Notes: generated by a model not told the origin, from the letters alone. Numbered from the stretch's first letter, positions 36,968 through 54,252 are shown. The stretch is DNA of 54,252 bases from Myxococcales bacterium (GCA_037445065.1 JBBILD010000025.1:1-54252), one strand, 5' to 3'. Program-made: numbers and translations.

Positions 36968-39900
36968 GTGCGGCGCAAGCGGGTCTGGGCGCTCCTCTTG
37001 CTCTGCACCCTGCCATCTCCCTTGTGGGGCGCGTGGTCACAGGCAGCGGCACCGGCAGCGATGTTCCCTGCGCCTGTACCGCCAGCCTCGGTGGAAGGCT
37101 CGATTGCACCAGAGCAGGCTTCCGTTCCACTGGAGGTGCGGGAGGTGTTCCCCGGGCTACCCTTCGACGGGCGTATTCCACCGAACCCGACGGTTGCTGT
37201 AGGGCCGAACCACGTGCTGCTGGTGCACAACGGTGCCCTACGGGTACAGGCGCGCACGGGGGAGGTCCTCTGGGAACAAGAGCTGTTGAGTTTTTTCTCC
37301 CCGCTAGCGCAAAGCGCTGACTTCCTCACCGATCCGCGGGCGATGTTCGATGCAGGTCGCTTCTGGCTCGTGGTGGCGGCACGGCGGCCGAGCCCGCTCA
37401 GCTCGTTTTTTTTTCTCGCCGTGTCCCGCACTGCCGACGCAACCGGCCCATGGTGGCTCTACGCCCTCGACGTGAATTCGCAAGGTAGCTCCGACTTCGC
37501 TGACCTCCCGTCCATCGGCTCCGATGACCGTGCCATTTACCTGACTGCGAACCTGTTCGACCTCGACACCCTGGACTTTCGCGGCGCCCTGATCCGCGTG
37601 CTGCCCAAGGCAGCCGCGCTGCAAGGCGCACCTGTGAGCTGGCACGATTTCCGCGGCCTTTCCGCGGGAGGCACTGCGGCGTTTCACCTGGTCGCCGCGC
37701 AGGCCTGGTCGCCCGCGCCTGCTGGGTACATTGCGGCGACTCGCTTTCCGGCGGCTTGTGAACTCGCAGTGTGGCGGGTGATCACGCCGGAAACCGGAGA
37801 CCCTCTGCTGACCTTGAGGCGAATCCCGGTACAGCCACCGTGCGGGCCCCCGCCCAATGCGGCGCAGCAAGGAAGCTCGGTGCGCATCGAGACCGGCGGG
37901 CCGCGCCTCAACAGCGCCATTTGGCGGGATGATTCTCTGTGGCTCGCCGCGACCGCGGGCTTCGACTGGGGCAGTGGTTTGGCAGCAACGGTGCGCGTTT
38001 GGCAAGTGCATACGGCGGGATTCCCCGCCGTGAATCTCTTGCAGGACTTCTGGCACGGGGCGGCGGGCATTCATACCTTTTACCCCGCTCTTGCGGTGGA
38101 CCCGGCGGGTAACGCGCTTCTGACCTACAACTCGTCTGGCGCGAGTGCGTTCGTGGGGCTGTTTGCCGCTGGTCAGTTGCGCCAGGATGCGCGCAACGCC
38201 TTGGGTGCCCCAATCGGCATCCAGGCCGGACTCGATTCCTATGTGCGGCTCGACTCCCAAGGGCGCAACCGTTGGGGCGATTACAACACCGCAGTGGTGG
38301 ACCCAGTAGACAACTCCTTCTGGGTATTCGGAGAAGTGGCCGACCGCGACAACCAATGGCAAACCGTGTTGGCACGCCTGGCGTTTGCGTTCCCGACTCC
38401 AACGGCCACCCGCACTGGCACCGCAACCGGCACGCCCACCGCCTCTCGCACCGCGACCCCTACCCCGACGCGCACGCGCACACCGCTCCCGTCGGTTACA
38501 CCCTCCTCCAGCGGGACTCCCACCCGGACCGCTACGCGGACCGCTACCCCGAGCCCAACCTGGTCGGCGACTGCTAGTCCCAGTGCTACTCGCTCCCCGA
38601 GTCCCACGAGCACGGCGACTTTCTCTGTCACTCCCAGCCCTACACGGAGCGCCACTTACAGCCCAACGCCGACCGTGACGCCCACCTTCACCGCGACTCC
38701 GAGTCGGACACCCACTGCCACCGCATCGGCCTCACCCTCCGTTACCGCCTCGCCCACCGCGAGCGCAACACCGACGCCCTCTCGCAGTCCTCGGCCCTCA
38801 GCGACGTTCTCCCCGAGCAGCACTTACACCATTACGAGGACACCCACCGTAACCCGAACTCCCAGCCGTTCGCCCAGCCCCACGGCAACGGCAACTCGGA
38901 TTCCCACCCGCACCCACACTCCGACGCGCGAGCCTACTCTTACCGCCACGCCGACCTGGACGGTGACGCCCACCCGCACGCACACGCCCACCCGTACTGC
39001 GACGGGTCCGACGCCAACCCCCTCCCCGACACCTTCTGCTTCTCCCTCGCCAAGCGCGCCGACGAGGACCCCGACCGGGTCGCCGACTTCGTCCCCTACG
39101 CCCACCCCTACCCTCTCGCCGCCGCCGTCCTCGACTCCATCCTTCACCGCTAGCGCGTCCCCCACTCTCTCCCCGACTCTGGAACCCACAGCCACCCCCA
39201 GCGCCACACCCTCTCTTACGGCCACAGCCACCGCTTCACCCAGTCCCTCTCACAGCTCGACACCCTCCGCGACCCCGTCCGCAAGCTGGACGGTTCCTCC
39301 CTCTCCCAGCCCTTCGCGCACAGCCACCGCAAGCGTGAGCCCGTCTGCCAGCGCAACCAACACTCGCACTGTGACGCGGACGCTGTCTGCGACGGTAACT
39401 GCCACTCCCTCTGCGTCACAAAGCGCGCCACCCAGTGCGACCCCAAGTGCCAGCGCGACGCAGACGCCCACTGCCTCCCCGAGCCGTTCTCTGACTGCAA
39501 GCCGCACGCCTACGCTTACCGCAAGCCCCACGGCAACGCCTTCCCGCACGCCGAGTGCGAGCCCCAGTGTCACAGCCAGCTACACGATGACGGCGACCGC
39601 GACCCTGTCTGCAACTCCGTCTGCGAGTCCCTCCCCCACACCGAGCCGCACGACTACGCCCTCTCCCACAGCCAGCCACTCCGCCTCCCCGACTCTCACC
39701 GCGACCCTGACTCCAACTGCGAGCGCGAGCCCGACACCGACGGCGAGCGCTACGCCCACCAAGACACCCTCCCCAACTTCGTCTCCGACTCCCCCGAGTG
39801 CTCGCGCCGATTTCGACGGCGATGGGGTGCTCAGCGAGGCCGACTTGCGGATTTTGTTGCGGCAGATCTTCTCCCCGCAGGCGCTCAGCCGCAGTGCCGA

Positions 39901-39979
39901 CTTGAATCACGACGGGCACGTGTCGGCTGCCGACGTGACGGCCTTCTTGCTCCTGTGGCAGGAGCCTCCGCTCCCCTAA
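36968..39979 (+). CDS. Secreted protein: beta-rich N-terminal domain, about 470-aa Ser/Thr/Pro stalk, C-terminal dockerin-like domain
   Basis: Signal peptide, [12 protein letters not shown] and RWGDY motifs, long TPS tract, and [28 protein letters not shown]. Confidence 0.85.
38393..39798 (+). repeat. Mucin-like Thr/Pro/Ser/Ala low-complexity coding tract
   Basis: About 1.4 kb of degenerate TATP/SPSP/TRTP units with no exact long DNA repeat unit. Confidence 0.9.
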
Positions 39980-40394
39980 CTGGAGAGGCTGCACGGCGTT
40001 GCACCACTGACCTTCCTTTCCGCGGAGGGCTCTGTTCCTGTGGAGCCGCAGCGACTGCGCAACACGCCGCCGGGGAACGGTCTCCCTCTTGAGCGTCTGG
40101 CTGGCAATCGCGGACGGCCGCGTTTTGGATTCTCTCTCGCAACGGCACGCGCCGCCGAGACGTGCAGGCTGCCGCAGAGCAGATCCTGCAACAAAGAACT
40201 CCTTCACCGAAAACCACCCTTCCTTCGTGCTGCAGTTACGACGGTAAAACGCGGAGCCTGGCCTGGGCCTCGGGCAGAGTCCGCTCTCCGCGCCCTACGT
40301 CCTGTTGAAACGGCAGTGGTGGTGTTCGGCGGCTGCGGTGGAGCAGGAGACGCTTTCGCAGCAGATCGGGACGTGAAGCTCCTTGCCCGCCTGA

Positions 40395-41141
40395 CTACGA
40401 GGTCACGGCGGTAAGGTGCAGGGTGCGGGCTTCCCGCAAAACGTCGTCGCTGCTGCCCCCAGCCACGATTCTTCCCTCGTGCAGCAATAGAGCGCGGCTA
40501 GCAACCTGCCGTGCGAATTCCGGCTGATGGGTGGCGAGCACCACACTGCCGCCGCGCCCGGCGAATTCGGTGACCACTTCCGCAATCAGTTCTTGGCGCG
40601 AGGCATCGAGCGCCGAGGTCGGTTCGTCGAGCAGGAGAATGTCCGGCTCGAGCATCAGAGCGCGGGCCAGCGACACGCGCTGCTGTTCTCCCCCGGAAAG
40701 CGTGCGCGGAAACGCATCGCGCAGGTGCGCGAGGTGCAGCCGCTCAAGCCACGCGCAAGCCCGCTCCTCGGCGCGCTGGGCAGGCCAACCCAACGCGTAG
40801 AGCGGCGCCTCGGTGAGGTTCTCGAACACCGTGCGATGGGGGAACAAGTGGAAATGCTGAAACACCATGCCGACCTTTCGCCTGACAGCCACGAATTCGC
40901 GCGCGTGCCGACGTTCCGACATGCCGGGCAGCAAAGCGTGCCCGAGCACCTCGATGCGTCCTGCGTCGAACGGCGTGAGATAGTTGATGGTACGCAGCAG
41001 CGTGGTCTTTCCCCCTCCGGAAGGCCCGAAGAGTGCGACCACCTCGCCGCGCGAGGTCGTAAACGACACGCCGCGCAAAACGGGCCGACCCGCGAACCGT
41101 ACGTGTACCCCTTCGACCCGCAGCGCCAGCCCGTCGTTCAT
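40395..41141 (-). CDS. Polar amino acid ABC transporter ATP-binding protein
   Basis: GPSGGGKTT, GMVFQHFHLFPH, LSGGEQQRV, LLDEPTSALD; ATGA overlap with the permease gene. Confidence 0.93.
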   Translation of the reverse strand: MNDGLALRVEGVHVRFAGRPVLRGVSFTTSRGEVVALFGPSGGGKTTLLRTINYLTPFDAGRIEVLGHALLPGMSERRHAREFVAVRRKVGMVFQHFHLFPHRTVFENLTEAPLYALGWPAQRAEERACAWLERLHLAHLRDAFPRTLSGGEQQRVSLARALMLEPDILLLDEPTSALDASRQELIAEVVTEFAGRGGSVVLATHQPEFARQVASRALLLHEGRIVAGGSSDDVLREARTLHLTAVTS

Positions 41142-42613
41142 CGCTCCCCACTCAATTGTTGCTCGAGACGGCGCGCGAGTCGGGACAATGGCAAGCTCAT
41201 GGCGAGATACAGCGCCGCACACAAGAGACCCGGGACGAGCCAACTGCGCAAGTCTACCGCCGTGATGGTCATCTGCTTGGTGAGTTCCACAACGGTAATC
41301 ACAGAGACGATCGAAGAGTCTTTAAGCAAAGCGATAAAATCATTGGCCATCCCGGGCAGAGCGACCTTCAAAGCCTGCGGCAACACGACGCGCCGGAAGG
41401 TGACCCAGCGCGACATGCCGAGAGCGAGCCCTGCCTCTCGCTGTCCGAGCGACACAGCGCGAAAGCCGGCACGGTACAGTTCCGATTCGTAAGCAGCGTA
41501 GTTCATCCCCAGACCGAGCACCGCCGTGGTGAATGCGTCGAGGGCAATATACGGTGCAAGCCCGTAGTAGAGCACGTAGAGCTGCAAGAGAACGGGCGTG
41601 CCCCGAAAGAGCTCCACGTATCCACGCGCCAGCCCGCGCAAGGCGAGGACGCTGGATTCCGCTCCCGCGCTGACGATGAGGCCGAGGCTCACCGCGACTG
41701 CCATGGCCAGGATCGAGAGCACGAAGGTCACCCCGGCACCGCGCAAAAACAGGCCAAGGTGTGACCAGGTTGCCGTAGAGGCCTCGGCCCGTGAAATTCG
41801 TGCCGCCACCTCCGGCATCGAGAGTCGCCAAGCGCTGAGGATGCGTGCCAGCTCTCCGTCGCTGCTCATCTCCGCCAAGGCCTGGTCTAGCGCTCGCCAT
41901 AACGTTCGATCCCGTGGGCGAACCGCCATCGCATACCCTCCGCCCGGCAAGCGCGCGGCTTCTACTAAGTGCGGGCGCACTAGCCCGTACCGCTCGGCGA
42001 TCACGTGATCGAGCAACACTGCTTCGAGCCGCCGATTCTCGAGGTCAATGAATGGCTCCTCCACGCCATCGTAGAGAACCACGTGCACACCTGGAGTGGC
42101 ACGCAACATCTCGTGCGCAAGCGAGCTGGCGAGTGTACCGACCCGCTGCCCCGTCAAGGCAGCTAGGGACGGCGGCAGCGAGCTGGATGCTTCGCGGCGG
42201 ACCACGAGACTCTCGTAAAAAGCGGCGTAGGGGCGGGTGAGCAAAAAATCCCGTGCGCGCGCAGGGGTAACCTCGATCCCGTTCACGGCCACATCGAAAT
42301 CCCCGCGCACAAGAGCTGAAAGAAGCGTTGCCCAATCGGCCTGCACGAATTCCGCCCGCACACCCAAGCGGCGAGCAACCGACTCCATGATTTCCACCTC
42401 GAAGCCGCGCAGTTGCTCTGCGTTGAGGGGGTCACGGAACACATAGGGCTCTCCACCCTGTAGGTCGCCTCCCCAACGCAGCACTCCAGCCTGGCGCACG
42501 CGGGACAGACTCTCGTCGGACACCGCTGCGTCGTTTCCCTGCGCGGCGCAAGCGGCCGGGGCCGATGCGGTCGCCAGCAAGATCAGGCCGCCAATCGCGC
42601 ACTGCACGAGCAC
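41138..42613 (-). CDS. Fused amino acid ABC transporter substrate-binding protein/permease
   Basis: SBP family 3 domain (GFEVEI, GDFDVAVNG) followed by FRGTPVLLQL, AAYESE, ALGMS and LLKDSS. The start is uncertain. Confidence 0.9.
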   Translation of the reverse strand: MLVQCAIGGLILLATASAPAACAAQGNDAAVSDESLSRVRQAGVLRWGGDLQGGEPYVFRDPLNAEQLRGFEVEIMESVARRLGVRAEFVQADWATLLSALVRGDFDVAVNGIEVTPARARDFLLTRPYAAFYESLVVRREASSSLPPSLAALTGQRVGTLASSLAHEMLRATPGVHVVLYDGVEEPFIDLENRRLEAVLLDHVIAERYGLVRPHLVEAARLPGGGYAMAVRPRDRTLWRALDQALAEMSSDGELARILSAWRLSMPEVAARISRAEASTATWSHLGLFLRGAGVTFVLSILAMAVAVSLGLIVSAGAESSVLALRGLARGYVELFRGTPVLLQLYVLYYGLAPYIALDAFTTAVLGLGMNYAAYESELYRAGFRAVSLGQREAGLALGMSRWVTFRRVVLPQALKVALPGMANDFIALLKDSSIVSVITVVELTKQMTITAVDLRSWLVPGLLCAALYLAMSLPLSRLARRLEQQLSGER

Positions 42614-42764
42614 GCTCCCGAGCCGGGTGCCAACATGCGCAGCCAAGGAGATTGCCGGGCTAAGACAGCAGGAACCCATCAGCGGCGTGCGGTACGCCGG
42701 CAAAAGCAGCCGGGAGCCGAGTTCTGCTCTCCATCGCGGGTCGGCAGCGTAGCGACGATGGCCC

Positions 42765-43763
42765 TCAGTGGGAAGAGGTTTGCGGCAGGAGTCCAGCAGC
42801 CACCAGACCCTGCGTCGGGTCAACTTCGAACCACGCCACGGCGGTCGCCTCTTCTAACAAGACGGGCCACGGCTCCGGAAAGAGCCAGCAGTACAGGCGA
42901 AACCGCTGGCCATCCGATTCAACCGCGCCTAAGGCGAACGACAGGAACGACCCGGTAGCCGGGAGCGGGTGCTCGAGCAGCGCCGGCGCAAAACGACGGA
43001 AGAGTTCCTCGCCCGCCTGCCACAGACGCGCCTTCTCAGGGTCTGCAAGTACCTCTGCAGGCGGCCACGAAGGCAACACCGCGCGCCGCAATTCGATCAG
43101 GGACACACCTTTCTTCGTAGGATCCGCTTGGGGGAGCGGCGGTAAGACCACACACCGCCGTACAGCCTCTTTCGGAGGGACGCCCTCCGGTGGCGGGGTA
43201 GCCAATGCGCTCGGCTGGGCTGCTGGCGCTGCCAGCTCATCGCCGGAAGGCGTCTCTGCATCGGCCACTCGCTCGCCGAGCGTGCTACTTCTCAAGGCGC
43301 CCTCGCTCGCGGCCGCGGCAGGTGCTGGTTCTACTGCGATCTCAGGGGCCGTGGGCGCTTCCACCGGGGTGCGCGACTCTCGTTCGGCGTAAGCTGTCTC
43401 GGCAGGCGAAGGTCCATTGTCCGGATGCCACGGGTCCACCGATGGCAGCGGCGGCGCAGTGGGCCACAACCATTCTGCCTCCTCGCCTTCCGCGCTTGCC
43501 GGGGTTGGCGCGTGTGCCCCAACTGTGGGCACCGGTGCAGTGCTCGAAGCCACGGCTTCTGCCGTCTCGGCCTCCACCGCAAGAGTGGCTCTCCGGCGCC
43601 GTTCTTCCGCCAAACGCATCAGGAACGGAACCAAGCTCAGAAAAAGGAAAGCGCAGGCAACCGCAGCAACTTCCTCCGCGGTCAGCGAAGGGCCGGACAA
43701 GAGCAGCCGTTCCATCGCGCGTGATGAAGCCGATTTCACCGCGACAGGCAAGAAGCCTTGCAT
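42765..43763 (-). CDS. Hypothetical single-pass membrane protein with Pro/Ala/Glu-rich linker
   Basis: TM-like VAAVACAFLFLSLVPFLM followed by a basic RRRR patch, a disordered linker and a globular C-terminus. Start is 43763 or 43715. Confidence 0.55.
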   Translation of the reverse strand: MQGFLPVAVKSASSRAMERLLLSGPSLTAEEVAAVACAFLFLSLVPFLMRLAEERRRRATLAVEAETAEAVASSTAPVPTVGAHAPTPASAEGEEAEWLWPTAPPLPSVDPWHPDNGPSPAETAYAERESRTPVEAPTAPEIAVEPAPAAAASEGALRSSTLGERVADAETPSGDELAAPAAQPSALATPPPEGVPPKEAVRRCVVLPPLPQADPTKKGVSLIELRRAVLPSWPPAEVLADPEKARLWQAGEELFRRFAPALLEHPLPATGSFLSFALGAVESDGQRFRLYCWLFPEPWPVLLEEATAVAWFEVDPTQGLVAAGLLPQTSSH

Positions 43764-44086
43764 CTTGCCTTCGGCACCGCCCGCAGAAGCGCCCTGCCTT
43801 GAAATTTGGGAAGGCTTCGCCTGTCCCCCAGGGAGGCCCGGCCGCCCATTCAGTGATGCTGCTGGCCCTGCGTACGCCCGCACCATGCCCGTGAAGGGTT
43901 CACCGCGAGTGCCGAGTGACGGCTCGTTTTCTGCGCGCCACACCCAGCGAGGGAACGATCGAGTTGCCATCCCAGCAGCTTTGTGCGAACCAGCGCGGCC
44001 TGCGGGGTTTCTATGCGTGGAAGACGACGACTGCCCGCTCTCACCGACAACGCCTTGCCAGGGTGGGACCAGGAAGTGCGGTGGAC

Positions 44087-45949
44087 ATGAACCCCCTCTT
44101 CCACATTTCCTTGGCGCTGATCGCAGGTGTGGTCGCGCACTTGATCGCGGCACGTTTGGCGCTTCCCAGCATTGTTATCTTGCTGCCCACGGGCGTGCTC
44201 ATCGGGCCAGACGGCTTGGGTTGGCTGGATCCGGCACAGTTTCGTGCCGCGCAAGCGGAGTTGGTGAGTTTGGCGGTAACGATCATCCTATTCGAGGGAG
44301 CGTTAGCTTTGCGCGTTCCTTACCTCCGCCAGCAAACCCGCACCCTCGGCATGCTCCTCACTGTGGGCGCACTGATCTCGCTCTTGTGCGGCACAGCGGC
44401 AGCACGGTTCTTCCTCGACATGCCGTGGAATCTGGCTTGGCTCTATGGAGCGATCGTCATCGTGACCGGACCGACTGTGGTCTCCCCCCTGCTCGCCCGC
44501 TTAGCCATAGACCGTCGGGTGCGCGAGATTCTGGTTGCCGAGGGGGTTCTGATCGATCCAATCGGCGCGATCTTTGCGATCGTGCTCGCGGAGTATTTCC
44601 TCGGGCACGCCGGCCCGTGGGCTGCCGGCTGGCTCGTCCTGTTTCGACTCGGTGTGGGCGCCTTCGTAGGCGCGGGAGCCGGGCTCGTTCTTACTGCCGC
44701 GTTGCGTCGCGGCTTGATTCCTGAGCAGCTCCGCAACCCGACTGTGCTCGCAGTGGTGCTGTTTGCAGCAACGCTGGCGAGTCGTATCTCGGCGGAAGCA
44801 GGGCTCATGGCGGCCGTAGCTCAGGGTGTGGTGATGGCCAACGCCGACCTGTACGGCACCGGCCGGTTGCGCGCTTTCAAGGAGGAGCTGACGCTGCTGT
44901 TCTTGGCGTTCATCTTCGTGGCCCTGGCTGCCGGATTGCCTGTGGCCGAAGTCGCCGCCCTCGACTGGAGGGGCCTAGCGGTGGTGGCGAGTCTGTTGTG
45001 GATCGGCCGCCCCCTCGCCGTGGTCGTATCTACCTGCGGTACGGACTTGCGTTGGGGCGAACGCGTGTTTCTCGCGTGGATTTGCCCGCGCGGGATCGTC
45101 GCTGCTTCGGTAGCTGGCTTGTTCGGCTTGCTACTCGCTGAGAAAGGCGTGGCGGGAGCAACGCGTCTCGAAGCGCTGGTCTTTGTTACCGTGGCCGTTA
45201 CCGTGGCCCTTCAGGGACTCACTGCGCCGCTCGTGGCACGGGTGACCGGGGTCAACTTGCCTTCGCTCAACGGTGCCCTGATCGTAGGCGGCGACTTCTT
45301 TGGCAGGTTGGTGGGGCGCTTGCTGGCCGCGCGCGGCCGACAAGTGGTGATCGTAGACAACAACGCCGGCCATTGCGCGGCCGCACAAAGCGCGGGTCTG
45401 GCAGTGTACCGAGGCGACGCGCTCCAAGCCGACACTCTGGATGCTGCCGGGATCCGGTTCGTAGACACGGTACTGGCCTTGACCCGCAATCTCGAGCTGA
45501 ACGATCTTGTCGCACAAGAGGTGCGAGAGCACTTTCGCATCGAGCGGGTGCTGTCTGTCGGTGCAGCCGCGCAAAGAAACGCCGATCGCCCATTCCCCGG
45601 GCGGCTTCCCCACCTCGATGAGGTGAACGCTGCTTTGCGGCACCGCCGCGCGCGTGTGAGGATATACCGGGTGCCGCGGGCAGTGGCCCGCAGGCTGCTC
45701 GCCGACCTGCCCTTTGCGGACGGTGAGGCGGCGGTGCTGCTCGAACGCCGCGGTCGAGTGTTTGTGGCTCGAGAGAACGAAGTACTCGAAGAGGAAGACA
45801 CCGTCATTTGCCTGCAAACGGAGCCCACCTCGAGTCCGCTCGAGCAGGTCCTGGAACTGGTTGCCGACCAACCCGCAGCTTCTCTGGAAGCGGAGAGCAC
45901 GGCACCGTTGCCGGGGCAACCGCGCGGGATGGAAAGCGGCGGAAGCTAA
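44087..45949 (+). CDS. CPA1 (NhaP-type) cation:proton antiporter with TrkA-N/RCK domain
   Basis: ILFEGAL, VTGPTVV, EGVLIDPIG, PRGIVAASVA, LQGLT, then ALIVGG..GDAL. Confidence 0.92.
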   Translation: MNPLFHISLALIAGVVAHLIAARLALPSIVILLPTGVLIGPDGLGWLDPAQFRAAQAELVSLAVTIILFEGALALRVPYLRQQTRTLGMLLTVGALISLLCGTAAARFFLDMPWNLAWLYGAIVIVTGPTVVSPLLARLAIDRRVREILVAEGVLIDPIGAIFAIVLAEYFLGHAGPWAAGWLVLFRLGVGAFVGAGAGLVLTAALRRGLIPEQLRNPTVLAVVLFAATLASRISAEAGLMAAVAQGVVMANADLYGTGRLRAFKEELTLLFLAFIFVALAAGLPVAEVAALDWRGLAVVASLLWIGRPLAVVVSTCGTDLRWGERVFLAWICPRGIVAASVAGLFGLLLAEKGVAGATRLEALVFVTVAVTVALQGLTAPLVARVTGVNLPSLNGALIVGGDFFGRLVGRLLAARGRQVVIVDNNAGHCAAAQSAGLAVYRGDALQADTLDAAGIRFVDTVLALTRNLELNDLVAQEVREHFRIERVLSVGAAAQRNADRPFPGRLPHLDEVNAALRHRRARVRIYRVPRAVARRLLADLPFADGEAAVLLERRGRVFVARENEVLEEEDTVICLQTEPTSSPLEQVLELVADQPAASLEAESTAPLPGQPRGMESGGS

Positions 45950-46067
45950 GGTTGCGGCCCGACACCCCCGTCCAAGACGGTGCCCTAGTTTTCCCGAACC
46001 TCCTATAATCGCCCCTTCTCCGCTTCCGCTCGCCACGCCTTGCCAGAAAGGAATTGAGCAGCGCGCC

Positions 46068-47060
46068 TCACTCCTGAGGAAGAGGCCCGGCCGGCGGCCG
46101 CTCTCTACCCTCGCCATCCTCCAAGGCGGACTGGTGCGACTGGGGCCCGTTGGTCAGGGCCACGTACAGGGAGGGTGGACGTCCTTGCTTCGGAACGCCG
46201 GGGTACAGCGTGAGATGTGGGAAGGGAATCTCGATGCCAGCCTGGTCAAAAGCCTTTTTCAGGCGGCGCAGATACTCCCGCCGCACGTCCCACTGGGAGC
46301 CTGGCAGCACTTTCATGCGTAGGCGCAAGAGTACCGCGCTGTCCTGAAATGCCTCCACGCCTACAACTTCGGGAGCGTCGAGAATGCGCTCGCACCACGG
46401 GCTCTCGTTTGCCATTTCCTGAGCCACCCGCCGCATCACCGCCAGGGCGGTGTCCGGGTCTTCCCGGTAGGCGACCCCGACATCGATTACCGATTGGGCA
46501 AAGCCCATGCTCTTGTTCACCACTGTGGTCACCGACCCGCAAGGTACGAAAATCACTTGCCCGCTGTAGTCGCGCAACCGAACCGTGCGGAGCGTAATTC
46601 CTTCCACGACGCCCGAGTACCCGCCCACTTCGACGATATCGCCGACGCGCAGTTGGCCCTCCAATAGGAGGGCGAAGCCGGAAAAGTAATCTTTCACTAA
46701 GCTTTGTGCGGCAAAGCCAGCGGCAATGCCTGTCACCCCAGCGGCAGTCAGTAGGGGAGCAATCGAAACGCCCAGGATCGACAGAATGCTGATTGCCGCC
46801 ACCGTCCAAATGACAGCCCGCACCACCAGCGTGAGGACGCGCCGAATGGTCTCCACTTGTTTGGCCCCATCGAGATCTGCCTTGGCACGCTTCACTCGCT
46901 CCAGGGCAACTCGAATGGAATGAACCAAGATGGTGCTCGTGAGCAGTGCCAGCCCCACGACCAGTGCGACCCGCAGGGCGTTTGCCGCAAGCTGGATGCG
47001 CCATAGGTTCCAATCGAAAACCGCGAGTTCGCTGCGAATGTTTTGTAGCAATTCCTCCAT
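46068..47060 (-). CDS. MscS family mechanosensitive channel
   Basis: [48 protein letters not shown]. Start ATG 47060 follows GGAG. Confidence 0.92.
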
Positions 47061-47300
47061 GCTCCCCTCCTGCGACGGGAATCCTTGCACGATACCAGCC
47101 GCGAACTGCATTTCATCCCGTCCGTGCCCCTCGCCGGACCGATTCTGCAAGACTGTGCGACACGCGATCCGACCGTACAGCCCGCCGCATCGTGGCGTTG
47201 CATCCGTTCGGACCGCCTCCTGCCAGCGGCGAGTGCCGGCGAAAACTGCGCCCGCAAAACCCTTGCCGCCTCGCTTCGCGTTGTGGCAAGTTCGGGCGCC

Positions 47301-47743
47301 GTGGCTTACGCGATCCAGCGATGCTGCCTGAGCGGTGTGCTCACGTTCCTCGCCGCGTTCGGGGCGATCCCGAGCAAGTCGCTTGCCCTGCAGATTTTCG
47401 TGCGTCCTCCCAGCGGTGGGACCATCACGTTGGAGGTCGAGCCGAGCGACACGATTGCAATCGTGAAGCAACAAATTCAGGACCGCACCGCGATCCCAGC
47501 CGACCAGCAATGCCTGTTTTTCGCGGGGGCGCCGCTGCCCGATGAACGCACCCTGGCCGAGTTGAATATCCAAAAGGAGTCCCCCTCGAATTGCGATTGT
47601 GCCAGAGCCTCGCGCCCAGCGCTGTGCCGGTAGTCGGTTCTGGCCTCACCCTGGTGCTACCGGTGAGCCTGTTTTTTGTGGCCGCCATTCGCAGCCGGCT
47701 GCCGGGTCGAAAGGCTACCGTGGAGCACTCGCTGCGACACTGA
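47301..47743 (+). pseudogene. Signal-peptide-bearing eukaryote-like ubiquitin domain protein, apparent 1-nt frameshift at 47581-47585 (pseudogene or sequencing error)
   Basis: 47388-47582 reads [65 protein letters not shown]. The as-read frame stops at 47633. The shifted frame continues [33 protein letters not shown] to TGA 47741-47743. Confidence 0.8.
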
Positions 47744-48008
47744 TCGAGGCAGCTAGGAACGCGCAGTTCGCACCGCTGCGTTCCGGGGCAGCACGGCTTG
47801 TGGCCTCGGGAACGCGAGGCTGTGCACCTGCTAGCGTGCGCCACACGGGGCTCCCATCGTGGAGCCGCCGCCCTCGGTGGGCCTACCAGCCGGCTCCAGT
47901 TCGAAGCGTCGCCGCGGCCGCGGCGCACCGCACGGAGGACCCGCGACCGCACGTCCTTTCGCCGAGGCGCACGGTCGCCGTCACGGGGAGTGCCAGCGCG
48001 TGCTGCGT

Positions 48009-48551
48009 TCAAACCGGGCCGCGAGCGTACGCGGCATCAAAGGCAGCGTCCAGACCGGGGTTCAAACCGCGCACCTGTTCGGCGACCGCTTTTGCCCAGG
48101 AGAAGTATTTTTGCCGTCGCTCAACCGGCCAGTCGTGCGGAGGCCGCTCCACGATGTCGCGCAGGTTGGCAACCTTGTCGGCAAGCTTCACGAGTTGCGC
48201 TGCGCGACTCAAGGTGGCCACACGCTGCACCTGCCGCTGTTTGCGCTCGTCCGACTCGAGGTTCGCCGGGTCGGTCAACTCCTCGACAATGCGTGCAATC
48301 GTGTCGCCGAACTCTGCACGCAGCTCTTCTGCCGTAGTGTCGGTGTCTTCCAGGGTATCGTGGAGCAAGGCCGCGCAAATAACCAAGATGTCTTGCACGC
48401 CTCCCTCGTTGCACAAGAGATTTGCCACTGCGATCGGGTGGTTGATGTAGGGCGAAGCCTCGACATCCTTCCGCCGTTGGTCGCGGTGCTTGTGTGCACT
48501 GAAAGCGAGTGCCTTCAAAAGAAGCCTGAGTTCTTCCCCGCTGATGGACAT
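48009..48551 (-). CDS. Stand-alone HD-domain (p)ppGpp hydrolase (small alarmone hydrolase, Mesh1/SpoT-HD-like)
   Basis: HRDQRRK..PYINHPIAVA, ALLHDTLEDT, VEELTD, VKLADKVANLRD. Confidence 0.9.
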   Translation of the reverse strand: MSISGEELRLLLKALAFSAHKHRDQRRKDVEASPYINHPIAVANLLCNEGGVQDILVICAALLHDTLEDTDTTAEELRAEFGDTIARIVEELTDPANLESDERKQRQVQRVATLSRAAQLVKLADKVANLRDIVERPPHDWPVERRQKYFSWAKAVAEQVRGLNPGLDAAFDAAYARGPV

Positions 48552-49298
48552 GGCTGCGTAAGAGCAAGGAGTGGTGGCCAAAACAAGTGGCAGCCGCACC
48601 GGCGGTCCACCGGAAACACCGTTGCCGGTCTGCACCAGCGATCGTCCCGCCGCAGAACCCTGCTCTGCGCCCGCTGCTTTGGCATCAGCAATGGTTCACC
48701 CGCCCTCCCTGCTCACACCAGCGAGCGACCGTCGGCGCTGTTCACGCAGGTTGCCTCCGCCTCAGGCGGCCAGCCCACTGCTGCTGTCCACGGGGCGCGC
48801 ACTCCGCAGAGACCCGGTTCGACGGATCTCGAGGAACCGTTCCGCGTGACACAACGACAGAGGCAAACAGAAAATCCGCGACGATACACATTCCCGGCGT
48901 ACAACGACGGTAACAGCCACTGCTCGCACCGCAGGAAGCGAACCCCGCCAACGCGCCCCTTCCCTGTCTCGAGCCGCGTGCTTGAACCCTTGACGCGCAC
49001 GCAACGGCGCTTATCGGGTAAGGGCGTCGCTTCTCCGACGGCCTGCTCCCAGCATTCTACACTGTCCACCTACGAACCGCGGTGTCGCTTAGCCCTCATC
49101 GCGGTGATAGACCCACCCTGCTTGCAGCTTGATCTCGGCAAGGTTCTCTGGTTCTCTATGATACAAGGTTTCCGTATGGAAGGACTAGAAGGGCAAGCCG
49201 CCGCGGTCGGTTCGCGGTGCGCGTTCTCGTTGTTCGATCGAATGCTCGCCTACTCGCGAGCGTAAAATAGAACCGCAAAAAAGAGTTCGGAGCGAGCC

Positions 49299-49559
49299 GT
49301 GTTCAAAATTACAGTTCGGGTAAACGGCAGAGCGGTAAGCCTTGATGAGGCGGAGAGTGCTTTAGAAAAGGCGTTACTGGAAAAGATCGAGGCGTCCTTG
49401 CAGAAAAGAGTGGCCGGCGTTCGGTGTCCCGACCACGATGCAACTCCACGGATCATCCCGAAAGGTCCTACGCTGCGGCGACTCTCTTGGGAAGTGCGCG
49501 CCTGCTGTAAAAGCTTGCTTCAACTAGCCGTGGACAAACTGAAAGGGGAACGTTCCTAA
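49299..49559 (+). CDS. Small hypothetical protein with CPxH and CC motifs
   Basis: 86-aa ORF with protein-like composition, a GGAG RBS and an A-rich upstream region. Confidence 0.55.
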   Translation: MFKITVRVNGRAVSLDEAESALEKALLEKIEASLQKRVAGVRCPDHDATPRIIPKGPTLRRLSWEVRACCKSLLQLAVDKLKGERS

Positions 49560-50290
49560 GCTGACATGGGCCGTTCTCGGCGAGCCTGCTGAAGGGATGC
49601 TCGAACCGAGCCTCCGTAGCTGCTTGCTCCCTGTGCGTCCAGTAGCGACCTGGCTCGCCACTCAGGCGACGCGCACTATGCCGCTCTACCGGCGCATGCC
49701 TCGAAACAGTCTAGCTCGAACGCCGGAGAGCCGAGGCCAGCCGGTGGTGGATCCACCGTTTACGATCTGGGGCGGGCGGCGCCTCGCGGTCCCCCATGCG
49801 CAGCGGCGACATGCATGGAAAGCTTGCGACGCCTGCGTCCCTAACACCGCCGGAGCGCTTGAAACACAGCCTGCCCCGCCGCTCGGCGGCTACCACCAGC
49901 ATGGTTCGATCCCTTACCACTGCGCTGAATACAGATATCTGAGGACAGCTTTAATTTGCGCTCGCAGGGAAACTCGGGTGATCGGCATAGATAAGCGAGC
50001 GGGGCTGACATAAGGACAGCGACCAACCATTCGTGCGATGCGCTTTCGCTCCCGCTGAGCGTTGTCCCAATGCGCTATGGACCCCACCTATGGAGGCTCT
50101 CCAAGCCCCCTTTGTTCGGAGCCGATCCTCAGGGTCCTTGCTGGGTTGCGCGGGTCACGAGCCCGCCCCGCGTCCCCTTAGCTGCGGGGCCGCAGGCGCG
50201 GTTCTCACCGGCGCTTGCCGGGGGCTCTCCCCGGGGGGTAGAAGCGGCACCGCAGTGCGGAAACAGGCCGCAATGGCCTTTCGGGGACGC

Positions 50291-50713
50291 CTACTCGCCG
50301 ATGATCTTGATCAGCACGCGCTTGCGGCGGCGCCCGTCGAACTCGCCATAAAAGATCTGCTCCCAGGGACCGAAATCCAACTTGCCGTTCGTAATCGCCA
50401 CCACCACCTCACGCCCCATCACCTGGCGCTTGTGGTGAGCGTCGCCGTTGTCTTCGCCCGTGCGGTTGTGGTGGTAGCGCTTCGGACTGGGGTCGTATGG
50501 AGCGAGTTGTTCCAGCCAGCGGGCGTAGTCTTCGAGCAGTCCGGGCTCGTCGTCATTGATGAAGACGCTTGCGGTAATGTGCATGGCGTTGACCAGACAC
50601 AACCCTTCCTGGACACCACTCTCGCGGACCGCCCCTTCCACCTCGCGCGTGATGTTCACGAAGCCCATCCGCGCCGGTACGTTCATCACCAGCTCTTTCC
50701 GGTACGAGCGCAT
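50291..50713 (-). CDS. yjbQ: YjbQ/UPF0047 family protein
   Basis: [47 protein letters not shown]. Confidence 0.93.
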
Positions 50714-51195
50714 ATCCCTGCCCTACCAGCGCAGGCGCCTGCCTGTCCAGCGCCCGACGTTGCGCCTGGGTAGTTCAGTGAGCGCTGGAACGATTCCCCC
50801 CTTAGTGCCACGTGCGCACAGACAGAAAGTGAACCCGTCGGGTGGAAGCCAGCACGTTCGGCGACCCGGGCGGACACCGTCTTGCTTGCGAGCCGGCTCT
50901 GGCCCAACCCGGTGTGGGTGAGGCTCTCACCGATGAGTTGGGGCTGTCGAGGCCGACTGCTGAGAACAACGCCTTGGCGCGGGAGGCGTCGAGGTTTCCC
51001 ACGCCGGGAGGCCACGCCGCGTATTCCGCCTTGCCCAAACTTCATTCCGCCGCGCTGTATCGGCAAAGCACCGTACCTAGGCGACACCCGGCGAAGCTAC
51101 GCGAAGACGCGTGAGCGCTGGGACCAGCCTCGTATCTCGTCTGCCCCGGCTGCGACGCTCCCGCCCGCCAAGGCGCCGGCAACCAATCGTACCGA

Positions 51196-52110
51196 TTAGC
51201 CCACCGCCAACCGCATCGCCGCCGTGAGCGAGGGGCGTCCTTGCTCGACGATCGGCCGGTACCGTTTCTTCTCGCAATCCCGCCAGATCGCCGCCGCCGT
51301 GGCCAAACAACGCTTCGTTGCGGCCCGGATTTGCGTCAGGCTTGCCTTCCAACTGCTGAGGTAGAAGCCAGACGCTTGTGCAGTGTCCACGCCGGCCAGG
51401 CTGAGCAGGAAAAACGAAGTCAGTTCGGCTTCGAGTTCCGCTTGGTTCCGGCTGAGCGCTTGGTCTACGCGGTCCACAATTGTGACCTTTCCTCGTTCTT
51501 TCTTCTGGAAATGGAGCTTCACATGCGCGATTTCGTGCGCGAGAGTGGCAAGCCGCTCGGCCGGGCCTAAGCTTGGCTGCACCCAGATCGTGCGGCCGTT
51601 TGTACAGCCCGCCACCATGTAATTGGCCATGGGGCTTCCGTACACAAGTTCGACCCCGGAGCGCCGCGTCCACTCCTCCAGCGCACCCAAAGTCTTGGCG
51701 ATGACTTCCTCCGGTCCTCGAGTGTCGAGCCAGGTTGGCATCGAAAACGGCGGCCCTTCTGTGTCAGAAACATCGTATACTCGCGTAAGGGCGAAAAACC
51801 GGGTGGGCCGCTTGTCCCCGGGCTTCAAAGCCGGAGCGATGATAAAGATCGCTTTCGCGCCGCGTCACACGGTCCGCCCCTCTTTCTCCCACTGTTTGCG
51901 CCCTTTCACAAACGTCGCATCCGGGCGCTGCAACCCGATCAGGATCCGATTCAAGGGCGAGTAGTCACGAAATCCCTTGGCGAACGCGCGTAGCTGCTCC
52001 CGAATCGGGCCCGGATCTGTGGCTAAGCACGTTTCGAGCTTGCGCAGTGCTTGGTCTACCCGGCTGCGTGGCTTGATCAGCTCATTCTGTCGCCGCTTCT
52101 TGGCGGGCAC
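51196..52110 (-). pseudogene. ArdC-like ssDNA-binding plus zincin (HExxH) domain gene interrupted by an in-frame TGA
   Basis: ORFs 51865-52110 and 51196-51828 share a frame: YSPLNRILI..QRPDATFVKG..QW..GRTV*RGAKAIFIIAP..VYDVSDTEG..TLAHEIAH..ELEAE. Confidence 0.85.
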
Positions 52111-52128
52111 GATCGAACCTCCCTCATA

Positions 52129-52182
52129 ATGGAACCTCCTTTCTGCGAGGCATCACTGTAGCATGCACGAAGGAGTTTCCAT
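52129..52182 (-). promoter_or_regulatory. Imperfect inverted repeat/hairpin upstream of the ArdC-like gene
   Basis: ATGGAACCTCCTT (52129-52141) and AAGGAGTTTCCAT (52170-52182) are 12/13 complementary. Confidence 0.5.
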
Positions 52183-52336
52183 CGGAAACCTACAAAACGT
52201 CCCGACTGTCCATGGCCCGATTGAAACTCCTCTCCCTCGCCGGACACAATGCCGTGCGCTGCTCTTTTGTCTGTATTGCGGTGAAGGAGCAGGCGAGCAG
52301 ATGAGCCGCCTGATTCCACGCTGCTTGAACGCGGGC

Positions 52337-54252
52337 CTACGGGTTTTCGGGCAACGTCTCGATGTCTGCCTCGTCCAGCGGCTCGATGACGGCGTTGCGG
52401 ACCCACAATGGATCGAAACCCTCGGCGGATGTGCCCTCGATGTGGATCGTGACCTTCCGCTCGTCCGCCTTGTCCGCAAGATTGGCAATGGCCGGGAAGG
52501 CTTTGAAAATCTGGTCCCTAGTGGCTCGGAACTTAAGACGCAGGATCCTCTCGTGTACTCGGGTGGCTGGGCCTGCGGTCGGCGTTGGAGGGCTGGAAAC
52601 GGTGCCCGCCTGTGCGGAAGCTGCTTCACCGCCTACCACGGGTTGAAGGGGAGAGGCGGGAGCTAGACCCGTGGGCTCCGCGATGGCGGGCAAGGCAGAC
52701 GGCACGATGAGGAATCCGGATTCAAAGTCCACCTCGTCCTCGGCGATCGGCCGTTGGAAGGCGACTCTTTCACGGCTCACTTGGAACTTGCCATCTGGTC
52801 CCGGGGTCGGCGTGATCCCGCTTACGTAGGCAAAGGCTCCTTCGGCAACCCCACGCGCAATGCCCTTTGCAAGAACGGCTGCAGACTCGAGACGCGGTGG
52901 CACGAGGTCGCGGAAAAACGATTCGAGAACCTCGCCGGCCTTGACTCCAAGCACCGGGGCGTCACTCTGCGCAGCCGGCTCTCCCAGCCTCACCCGCTCC
53001 ATGATCTTCCGCGGCGTCACGCTGCCATGCACGCGCGGAGTTCCCACGCTGGTGAGGAGCTCCATGATTCGCTCGTGGACGGTGGTCGCTTGTAAGGGTC
53101 GGCCCCCGCGCTCCACGCGCTCGATAGCGATTTCACCCTGCTCGACACGGGGCAACCACACGGCAGCGTACAGATCGCGAAAGCTTGCTTCCGCAGCCGC
53201 CTCTTCCGTGCGTTTGCGCTCCTTCAGTTGATCTAACTGATCCTTTGTAAGGCGCAGTTGCTGCTTCTTGGCGTCAACCCGCTCGATCGCAATAAGGTAG
53301 CGCACCGCCCGGCGAAGGGCCTCGATCTGTTTCTTGTCAGGGATCGCGAGCCCAAGGCCGTTGCGGTATCGCCTCGGCCGCTCTCCGTATCTCGACAAGA
53401 ACTCCTTAGCCAGGCGTTCCTGCTCCGCCTTGCTTTCCACCGCAAACTCCAGCGGCAGATACGCGACGAGGAAGCGCGGTTCCCCGTCGGGGATATCCTG
53501 GCTCTTGTCGGGCCACACTACGGCACCTGGGTGTCCGGCAAGTCGAGCCTCGAGCATCTCCTTGATCCTCTCGCGGACCGGACCTCGCCCGTGCGCTTGA
53601 GTTTCCTCCCGTGATACCGTCTGTTCCGCATCCTCGATGAGCTTAGTGACGTTGGGGTCCTTCTTGAAACAGTAGCGAACCCCGTCGTAGTGCAGATACA
53701 GGCAGCTATTGCGAAGTTCGGCGAGAGCTGCGGTAGCAGTGATGTTGTCCAGATCTGGGCCCACACAAGCTGCCAGCAGCTCGCTTTCCGTCACTCCGGG
53801 GGGAAGGGCCTCGGCGTCGTCGCTGCCTTTCCGCCGCAGTCCACCGAACGAATACACCAGGATAGCAGTGGCTAGGCGTGTGGCTGGTTTCACGCTCGCC
53901 AACGCAGGCGTCTCGCGGGCCAGCCGCTCGTCAATGTGCTTGGCCCTCGCGTTCGGGCCCTCGATGTCTGCGGTGATGACCGGGTCGTACTCGTTCTGGA
54001 CCCCGAGCTCCTTAAGCATCTTGACCCGGACCTCCACGTCCTTGAGCGGCACATCGGAAGGTCCCAACAGCGGGCCCGCACCGCCGTTCCTCTTGAGCGA
54101 ATGCATGCACGACGCGAGAAACCGGAGCGCGCCCCGTGTCCTTTGGAAGGCATCCAAGGCGGACCACCTCTCGCGCATCACGTCGATCAAAGCGGGGTGG
54201 AACGGGTACGCGGCCCGCATCCGGCCGCGCAGCAGCCGTCCTTCTTCTTCGG
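52337..54252 (-). CDS. DUF499-family AAA+ ATPase (5' part off-window)
   Basis: YPFHPALID..W..FQRTRGALRFLA, RLATAILVYS, YLH...RYCF..PN, RRYRNGL. The frame stays open to the window edge. Confidence 0.85.
   Translation of the reverse strand, partial: EEEGRLLRGRMRAAYPFHPALIDVMRERWSALDAFQRTRGALRFLASCMHSLKRNGGAGPLLGPSDVPLKDVEVRVKMLKELGVQNEYDPVITADIEGPNARAKHIDERLARETPALASVKPATRLATAILVYSFGGLRRKGSDDAEALPPGVTESELLAACVGPDLDNITATAALAELRNSCLYLHYDGVRYCFKKDPNVTKLIEDAEQTVSREETQAHGRGPVRERIKEMLEARLAGHPGAVVWPDKSQDIPDGEPRFLVAYLPLEFAVESKAEQERLAKEFLSRYGERPRRYRNGLGLAIPDKKQIEALRRAVRYLIAIERVDAKKQQLRLTKDQLDQLKERKRTEEAAAEASFRDLYAAVWLPRVEQGEIAIERVERGGRPLQATTVHERIMELLTSVGTPRVHGSVTPRKIMERVRLGEPAAQSDAPVLGVKAGEVLESFFRDLVPPRLESAAVLAKGIARGVAEGAFAYVSGITPTPGPDGKFQVSRERVAFQRPIAEDEVDFESGFLIVPSALPAIAEPTGLAPASPLQPVVGGEAASAQAGTVSSPPTPTAGPATRVHERILRLKFRATRDQIFKAFPAIANLADKADERKVTIHIEGTSAEGFDPLWVRNAVIEPLDEADIETLPENP

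Follow-up and report, generated by a model that had tools for sequence, protein, structure and literature searches.

The window, that is the whole stretch of 54,252 nucleotides analyzed here (GCA_037445065.1, contig JBBILD010000025.1, positions 1-54252), comes from an assembly named Myxococcales bacterium and carries a ubiquitin-like gene on its plus strand. The locus holds a ubiquitin domain, the features of a signal peptide directly ahead of it, a break in the reading frame near the end of the domain and, in the other frame, a membrane anchor. An earlier note on this DNA, made from the sequence alone, had picked out the ubiquitin stretch as a eukaryote-like domain behind a bacterial leader. 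The features of the gene are given below.

The ubiquitin-like gene and its frame break

47061-47300, no strand: intergenic stretch separating the ubiquitin gene from the divergently oriented MscS-type channel gene (open reading frame list, Pfam MS_channel)
47085-47633, plus: open reading frame (ORF) of 182 amino acids that holds the ubiquitin-like gene
47301-47387, plus: signal-peptide-like leader, 29 codons from a GTG, ending S-L-A (sequence features)
47388-47582, plus: ubiquitin-fold domain, residues 1-65, from beta1 to just before beta5 (BLASTP, PF00240, AlphaFold)
47581-47585, plus: five-C run where the frame breaks; P0005, the in-frame relative, has one base more
47583-47633, plus: out-of-frame end of the ORF, 16 residues and a stop, unlike the host in codon composition and without Pfam or NCBIfam match
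47582-47602, plus: rest of beta5 (P-L-E-L-R-L) and Cys72, codon 47600-47602 (shifted frame, P0005)
47603-47644, plus: 14-residue linker with a V-P-V-V motif (shifted frame, aligned short homologues)
47645-47689, plus: hydrophobic segment of transmembrane type, 15 residues (shifted frame, Kyte-Doolittle value 2.56)
47690-47743, plus: basic tail R-S-R-L-P-G-R-K..., with a TGA stop at 47741-47743 (shifted frame)

The 182-residue ORF enclosing the ubiquitin stretch is present as the earlier note described it. The product of 47388-47582 is identical to canonical ubiquitin at 42 of 65 positions in a gap-free BLASTP alignment (E=2e-28), which reproduces a previous hand count exactly; the reference was the canonical sequence from L077, one of the contaminant loci described further below. 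In Pfam, the ORF matches PF00240 with E=1.3e-19 and 70.2 bits, above the curated cut-off of 25.4, over profile positions 1-63 of 72, and so belongs to the Ubiquitin family. NCBIfam gave just a weak match to a Rad23 ubiquitin domain. This is a true ubiquitin-family domain, well past chance, and it is much nearer to eukaryotic ubiquitin than ThiS/MoaD proteins are, as had been claimed. In an AF2 (AlphaFold) model of the as-sequenced product, the predicted local distance difference test score (pLDDT) is 82-92 across the ubiquitin part and below 50 at residues 98-110. The domain is also GC-rich like its host: the GC content of its three codon positions (0.62/0.46/0.79) follows the pattern of host genes, and positions 47001-48000 have a host-like GC content of 0.657.

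A change of reading frame at about 47583 explains why the Pfam match ends at position 63 of 72. Of the proteins in the collection, the closest is P0005 (107 amino acids, 98% identity), which is encoded on a 209-kb contig. P0005 residues 18-88 align with ubiquitin residues 1-71 (46/71 identities), and the ubiquitin part of the window agrees with P0005 in all 65 aligned columns (100% identity). At the break, the ORF reads KES and then PSNCDC..., where P0005 has K-E-S-T-L-E-L and runs across the site in one frame. Residues 4-23 of the shifted-frame translation, taken from 47576, match P0005 residues 84-103 at 19 of 20 positions. Judged by this comparison, which was made at the protein level, one base is missing from the window at the five-C run 47581-47585, in ubiquitin codon 66. 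A complete beta-grasp with beta5 in a single frame was not found, as beta5 lies in the shifted frame.

The codon composition was compared with that of four host genes, which have GC contents of 0.69-0.72/0.44-0.52/0.71-0.73 at the three codon positions. Positions 47585-47743 are host-like in the shifted frame only (0.70/0.51/0.72), and the tail in the ORF frame is unlike the host genes (0.53/0.77/0.71). The feature had previously been taken to end at 47582, in an ORF closing at 47633. That C-terminus is a frameshift artefact, and the feature runs on to 47743 in the other frame.

Leader, membrane anchor and cysteine pair

The leader has a single arginine near its N-terminus, a hydrophobic core (maximum Kyte-Doolittle value 2.2 over 10 residues) and serine at -3 and alanine at -1, immediately ahead of ubiquitin residue 1. 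These features bear out the description of a hydrophobic leader ending S-L-A at ubiquitin position 1. Among the homologues with leaders of at least 12 residues, 68 of 72 have a hydrophobic core, and 59 of these 68 have alanine at -1, always abutting ubiquitin residue 1. We predict a Sec-type leader that would be cut by signal peptidase I right before ubiquitin residue 1. The same arrangement is known from BfUbb of Bacteroides fragilis and is matched here by sequence features alone.

The recorded P0005 protein begins at a GTG equivalent to window position 47340, so that the N-terminal part of its leader is cut off. The BfUbb gene, too, was annotated without its signal sequence, according to the relevant section of PMC5705921. 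Exported ubiquitins may thus be under-recognized in annotations. Scans for tRNA genes and Rfam families gave no match; a terminator scan found none on the plus strand and a single terminator-like site on the minus strand, inside the gene.

In the shifted frame, the gene continues with the general layout of a sorting signal: V-P-V-V, 15 hydrophobic residues, R-S-R-L-P-G-R-K and a stop. The hydrophobic maximum (2.56 over 15 residues) lies at residue 24 of the shifted-frame translation, P0002. In aligned short homologues, a motif [V/I]-P-x-[L/V] stands about 8 residues past beta5 and is followed by a hydrophobic helix and arginines or lysines; tails rich in these two residues follow the hydrophobic segment in P0058, P0059, L004, L014, L033, L042 and P0084. 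The plan of leader, ubiquitin, transmembrane segment and basic tail is shared by P0058 and P0059 (139 amino acids) and by the Binatia locus L004. It recurs without the cysteines discussed below in L014, L028, L033, L042, L058, P0063, P0084 and P0101. A model of P0058 (mean pLDDT 86) has a leader helix at residues 2-18, a beta-grasp at 27-97 and a C-terminal helix at 111-131, and Foldseek superposes it on solved ubiquitin structures with TM-scores of 0.93-0.97 and root-mean-square deviations of 0.5-1.5 Å. The ESM Atlas holds bacterial clusters of ubiquitin-family proteins of about 130 amino acids, with 84, 60 and 54 members, and 87% of the members of the 54-member cluster carry an IPTL-CTERM domain.

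The tail resembles IPTL-CTERM and PEP-CTERM sorting signals (TIGR04174/PF18203 and TIGR02595) in having a motif, a hydrophobic helix and a C-terminal cluster of arginine and lysine. The IPTL-CTERM model TIGR04174, with a cut-off of 20.5 bits, is passed by P0084 (33.6 bits), L037 (41 bits) and L070 (28.3 bits); L042 (17.8 bits) and L014 (16 bits) fall under it, and the window tail, P0058, P0059 and L004 do not match. The window tail matches none of these models, and the 35 other ORFs of the window given to Pfam include no exosortase-like gene. The tail is therefore best described as a predicted C-terminal membrane anchor that is built like a sorting signal and is not a member of IPTL-CTERM/PEP-CTERM. 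With a cleaved leader and a positive-inside tail, default topology would put the ubiquitin fold outside the cytoplasmic membrane, and export in this orientation seems probable. Since beta5, the cysteine, a transmembrane anchor and a basic tail all follow the domain, the intact protein would be tethered and not diffusible. A free, secreted 65-residue ubiquitin does not fit this family plan.

The codons for Cys42 (47511-47513) and Cys72 (47600-47602) lie one on either side of the break. In a set of 76 prokaryote-type ubiquitin domains, positions 42 (n=5) and 72 (n=4) are the only ones at which cysteine was found. All four domains with Cys72, namely P0005, P0058, P0059 and L004, also have Cys42, i.e. 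all 4/4 complete members of the subgroup. The cysteines stand in place of Arg42 and Arg72, which in ubiquitin lie side by side on neighbouring strands. A Cys42-Cys72 disulfide, either stabilizing or functional, may reasonably be supposed, because BfUbb needs an intramolecular disulfide for its activity and for binding its peptidyl-prolyl isomerase (PPIase) target, as stated in the parts of PMC11901371 and PMC11467351 that deal with it.

The window gene shares with eukaryotic ubiquitin the fold and most core and loop residues. It differs in having a signal peptide and a membrane anchor, in lacking Gly-Gly and in its surface. The Ile44 patch is lost in the two-cysteine subgroup: P0005 has Pro, Phe, Glu and Arg in place of Leu8, Ile44, His68 and Val70, and it has Ala in place of Lys48. 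This loss makes it less likely that members of the subgroup act as decoys for the ubiquitin receptors of eukaryotes.

BfUbb and BoUbb, from Bacteroides fragilis and B. ovatus, were rightly named as the precedent by the earlier note (BfUbb): they have in common with the window gene a signal-peptidase-I leader cut exactly at ubiquitin residue 1, no C-terminal Gly-Gly, no conjugation enzymes and extra cysteines. In the portions of PMC3352274, PMC5705921, PMC11467351 and PMC11901371 that describe them, they are about 63-65% identical to eukaryotic ubiquitin, and BfUbb is a free, diffusible toxin of 76 residues that ends in Cys and is encoded on a low-GC island. Two of these sources (PMC11467351 and PMC11901371) report, in the sections concerned, its import by a SusCD transporter and its periplasmic PPIase target. 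The window gene differs in its host-like GC content, in the positions of its cysteines at 42 and 72, in its transmembrane anchor and in being a frameshifted copy. A free mature form of about 76 residues ending in Cys was not found, as a linker, helix and basic tail follow.

ThiS/MoaD, Pup and Bil/Bub-type tags are found in the cytoplasm, have a C-terminal Gly-Gly or its equivalent, and lie next to genes for E1-, E2- or JAB-like enzymes. The window gene has the beta-grasp class in common with them and none of the conjugation features. Gly-Gly is absent from both frames of the gene, Pfam found no E1, E2 or JAB domain in the 35 other ORFs of the window, and PADLOC gave no match for the ubiquitin-like protein. 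Since Gly-Gly is missing and genes for E1, E2 or deubiquitinase enzymes were not found there, the protein is not a conjugation tag, a point on which the earlier note was right.

Nature of the break

We suggest that this is a chromosomal gene whose ancestral form encoded an exported, membrane-anchored ubiquitin with two cysteines, and that the window copy was broken by a real loss of one base and is decaying. We give this reading a probability of roughly 55%. The ancestral product would have begun with a Sec signal peptide, removed by signal peptidase I right before ubiquitin residue 1, and continued with a complete ubiquitin beta-grasp of 72 residues with a cysteine pair in place of Arg42 and Arg72, a short linker, a single C-terminal transmembrane helix and a basic tail. 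The intact protein would have held its ubiquitin fold outside the cytoplasm, tethered to the membrane and probably stapled by the Cys42-Cys72 disulfide. If the tail is a sorting signal, the protein may have been passed on to the cell surface. By analogy with BfUbb and its periplasmic PPIase, we infer that the ubiquitin fold would bind other proteins and not act as a conjugatable tag. The loss of one base at codon 66 (about 47583) would put beta5 and the anchor out of frame.

Several points weigh against this reading. The GTG at 47301 is a putative start, with GTG 47283 and GTG 47340 as alternatives, the latter being the start implied by P0005, so that the start is uncertain. No clear Shine-Dalgarno or other ribosome-binding site was seen in the sequence ahead of GTG 47301. 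The intergenic region presumably holds the promoters of both divergent genes, and a sigma-70 consensus scan of 46900-48100 found 0 promoter-like sites. The tail P0002 gave 0 sorting-domain families in NCBIfam (E<=1 and 10) and in Pfam (E<=0.1). Residues 42 and 72 lie diagonally across beta3 and beta5 and not directly opposite each other. The subgroup with both cysteines is tiny, consisting of the window gene, P0005, P0058, P0059 and L004; when the C-terminal half of P0058 was used as the query, only P0058, P0059 and two weak matches came back. The co-occurrence of the two cysteines amounts to few independent events, as the sequences concerned form, with P0104, one small group (SH-aLRT 88) in a quick tree that is poorly resolved.

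The copy is most likely either decaying or mis-assembled. It is quite possible, at roughly three chances in ten, that the gene is intact in the organism, that the base missing at about 47583 reflects an assembly or sequencing error and that the full anchored protein is made. The break sits in a short C-run, the shifted frame downstream is a well-formed anchor with host-like codon composition, and the complete identity of the ubiquitin part to P0005 gives little sign of drift. Against this, the protein-level comparison with P0005 (K-E-S-T-L, with coding of the C-C-A-C-C-C type) has the window losing a base other than C, which is not a homopolymer miscount. Pfam domain matches were found in 22 of the 26 large ORFs of the window that were scanned, with no sign of interruption. 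An ArdC-like anti-restriction gene (ArdcN and a zincin metallopeptidase domain; 51196-52110, minus strand), which lies 4.3 kb downstream of the ubiquitin gene and looks like a second decaying accessory gene, has a single in-frame stop (...G-R-T-V-stop-R-G-A-K...), i.e. it was broken by a substitution and not by an insertion or deletion. P0005 itself ends early inside the anchor (...G-S-G-P-S-W-C, stop), where the window is intact, so that two near-identical genes carry two different lesions. We therefore infer a real mutation in a decaying accessory gene.

The remaining explanations seem to us far less probable. The ORF as sequenced could yield a free, secreted and truncated ubiquitin, residues 1-65 with 16 unrelated residues, acting as a toxin or decoy; this we consider improbable. 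Its leader and domain are real, and BfUbb is a secreted bacterial ubiquitin that acts as an antibacterial toxin (PMC5705921), but such a product would lack beta5, the central strand of the beta-grasp that follows in every relative, its tail is poorly modelled and has a non-coding codon-position GC, and the Ile44 patch is not kept. Still less likely is a programmed -1 ribosomal frameshift on the C-run, by which the anchored full-length protein would be made alongside a short one. Within C-C-C-C-C, a prolyl-tRNA sitting on CCC could slip back by one base and pair again, and the full-length frame is otherwise open to 47743. The site, however, has no slippery heptamer of the form X-XXY-YYZ, no downstream structure (z = -0.24 for a 111-nt fold) and no Rfam match, and P0005, L004 and all other relatives are in one frame there. 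That the ubiquitin segment is eukaryotic contamination or a chimeric join can be excluded for practical purposes because of its context, composition, bacterial leader and anchor. Eukaryotic polyubiquitin does occur in prokaryotic assemblies (L059, L062, L072, L075, L077 and L080), but here the gene lies within a 54-kb contig with bacterial MscS and HD genes on either side, is host-like in GC content and codon pattern, and has its 98%-identical copy on the 209-kb contig. The same design is furthermore found on large contigs of cultured isolates (L003, L011, L017, L024, L063, L064 and L078).

In-frame stops inside the ubiquitin domain were also seen in L001, from a Rhodobacter metagenome-assembled genome (MAG), after residue 30, and in L051, from a Dyella MAG, at residue 74. 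These family copies also look broken or miscalled.

The wider family, the host and possible roles

A profile scan of contigs from bacterial and archaeal species-representative genomes gave at least 559 loci confirmed by tblastn. The best 80 of these (L001-L080) were taken further, and 46 of their ORFs were scanned with Pfam; the best identity to the window gene among the matches listed is 67%. In the plan shared by these surface proteins, the N-terminus is a signal peptide, ending A-x-A, that is joined straight to residue 1 of a near-canonical ubiquitin. Across the 76 prokaryote-type domains, the median identity to canonical ubiquitin is 64/72, against 46/72 for P0005. Of these domains, 55 keep Leu8, 55 Ile44, 61 His68, 61 Lys48 and 73 Lys63. 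Most members are thus nearer to canonical ubiquitin than the window gene is and retain the Ile44 patch, and many carry long passengers and other anchors, as follows.

Autotransporter beta-domains: L003, L006, L011, L024, L027
Type IX secretion system sorting tails: L009, L012, L032, L052, L053
IPTL-CTERM: L037, L070
S-layer-homology domains: L041, L057, L064
Large adhesin-like repeats: among others in the archaeon Methanothrix (L002)

Cultured isolates with family loci are Novipirellula rosea, Marivivens geojensis, Pedobacter sp. BS3, Neptunomonas antarctica, Ruminococcus albus 8, Cohnella sp. and Vibrio floridensis. The window gene shares the leader joined to ubiquitin residue 1 and is a divergent member of this large family of exported prokaryotic ubiquitins.

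A domain tree of 83 rows and 72 columns, made by a quick method, was mostly unresolved, and the number of transfers from eukaryotes cannot be read from it. A search of protein representatives with a profile of the short anchored form gave 59,897 matches at E<=0.001. The best 150 of these, proteins of 326-2,275 amino acids, contain 4-23 ubiquitin-like stretches each and look like polyubiquitin. Six of the 80 loci (L059, L062, L072, L075, L077 and L080) are eukaryotic polyubiquitin or ubiquitin fusions on tiny contigs of 305-3306 bases, filed under bacterial isolates or MAGs of Microbacterium, Rugosimonospora, Arthrobacter, Hwanghaeella and Cyanobium. In L028 (6519-9413), from a Candidatus Limiplasma MAG, the short anchored ubiquitin gene adjoins two large serine recombinases, which hints that it is carried on a mobile element. 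L056, L068 and L074, from Actinomycetota MAGs, are leaderless, start with M-Q-I-F and continue into regions that contain fibronectin type III domains, confirmed by Pfam in L068, the one of the three that was scanned. These may be a leaderless variant of the family.

The host of the window, a soil-type bacterium, probably belongs to Candidatus Binatia. For the aldehyde dehydrogenase encoded in the window, the best relatives with a name are proteins from Candidatus Binatia MAGs (72-75% identity) and bacterium HR30 (72%), and the closest locus to the ubiquitin gene among the best 80 of the at least 559 is L004, from a Binatia MAG. The gene content, with many coenzyme A ligases, luciferase-like monooxygenases and one cytochrome P450, fits Binatia.

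The genes around the ubiquitin gene are listed below.

43916-45949: Na+/H+ exchanger with a TrkA domain (Pfam)
46068-47060, minus: MscS-type channel gene (Pfam MS_channel)
48009-48635, minus: HD-domain hydrolase (Pfam)

In a tblastx comparison of window positions 40001-54252 with the 80 loci, the ubiquitin segment was the sole match. Six neighbourhoods of short homologues had no gene in common, except between the related gammaproteobacterial loci L033 and L058. A DUF499/HmaC-like AAA+ ATPase gene (52337-54250, minus strand; PADLOC HmaC E=8e-50) is cut by the end of the window; it may belong to a mobile island or a helicase-methylase-ATPase defence system that continues past that point. No convincing gene was found in 48700-50000, and the GC content of 49001-50000 (0.593) is the lowest in the second half of the window. 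This stretch separates the HD gene from the ArdC/HmaC region and may be the degraded edge of an island. The product of 36968-39979 (plus strand), further upstream, is a secreted protein of 1003 amino acids. In it, a signal peptide and a globular N-terminal part precede a linker rich in Thr, Pro and Ser (about 470 residues), and the C-terminus resembles a dockerin or EF-hand (Dockerin_1, E=2.6e-4). The linker accounts for a strongly negative GC skew at 38-40 kb.

The known precedent is narrow. BfUbb has been called the sole bacterial homologue of eukaryotic ubiquitin, or one of few, in statements in PMC6194340 and PMC5705921. In the literature covered, only the work on BfUbb and BoUbb was found, and descriptions of the wider family beyond that literature are possible. 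The window adds the leader-ubiquitin design in an unrelated, uncultured phylum and, as a new variant, a tethered form of exported ubiquitin with two cysteines. Its main value is as a lead to a large and apparently undescribed family of exported prokaryotic ubiquitins, with at least 559 loci. Being broken, the window copy is a poor subject for study, and the intact relatives L004 and P0058 are preferable.

More tentatively, and with considerable doubt, we speculate that exported ubiquitin came from eukaryotes, moved between phyla and is now a widespread module of prokaryotic cell surfaces, which in many lineages has been kept within about 90% identity of eukaryotic ubiquitin, including the Ile44 patch, Lys48 and Lys63, by conserved extracellular partners. 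The window gene would then be a divergent, disulfide-stapled, tethered and decaying offshoot without the eukaryote-facing surface. If this is true, the partners would be either proteins with which eukaryotic grazers or hosts bind ubiquitin, or periplasmic chaperones of the PPIase type, like the one that BfUbb poisons. What ubiquitin does outside the prokaryotic cell, and how it is conserved there without a ubiquitin system, can now be tested.

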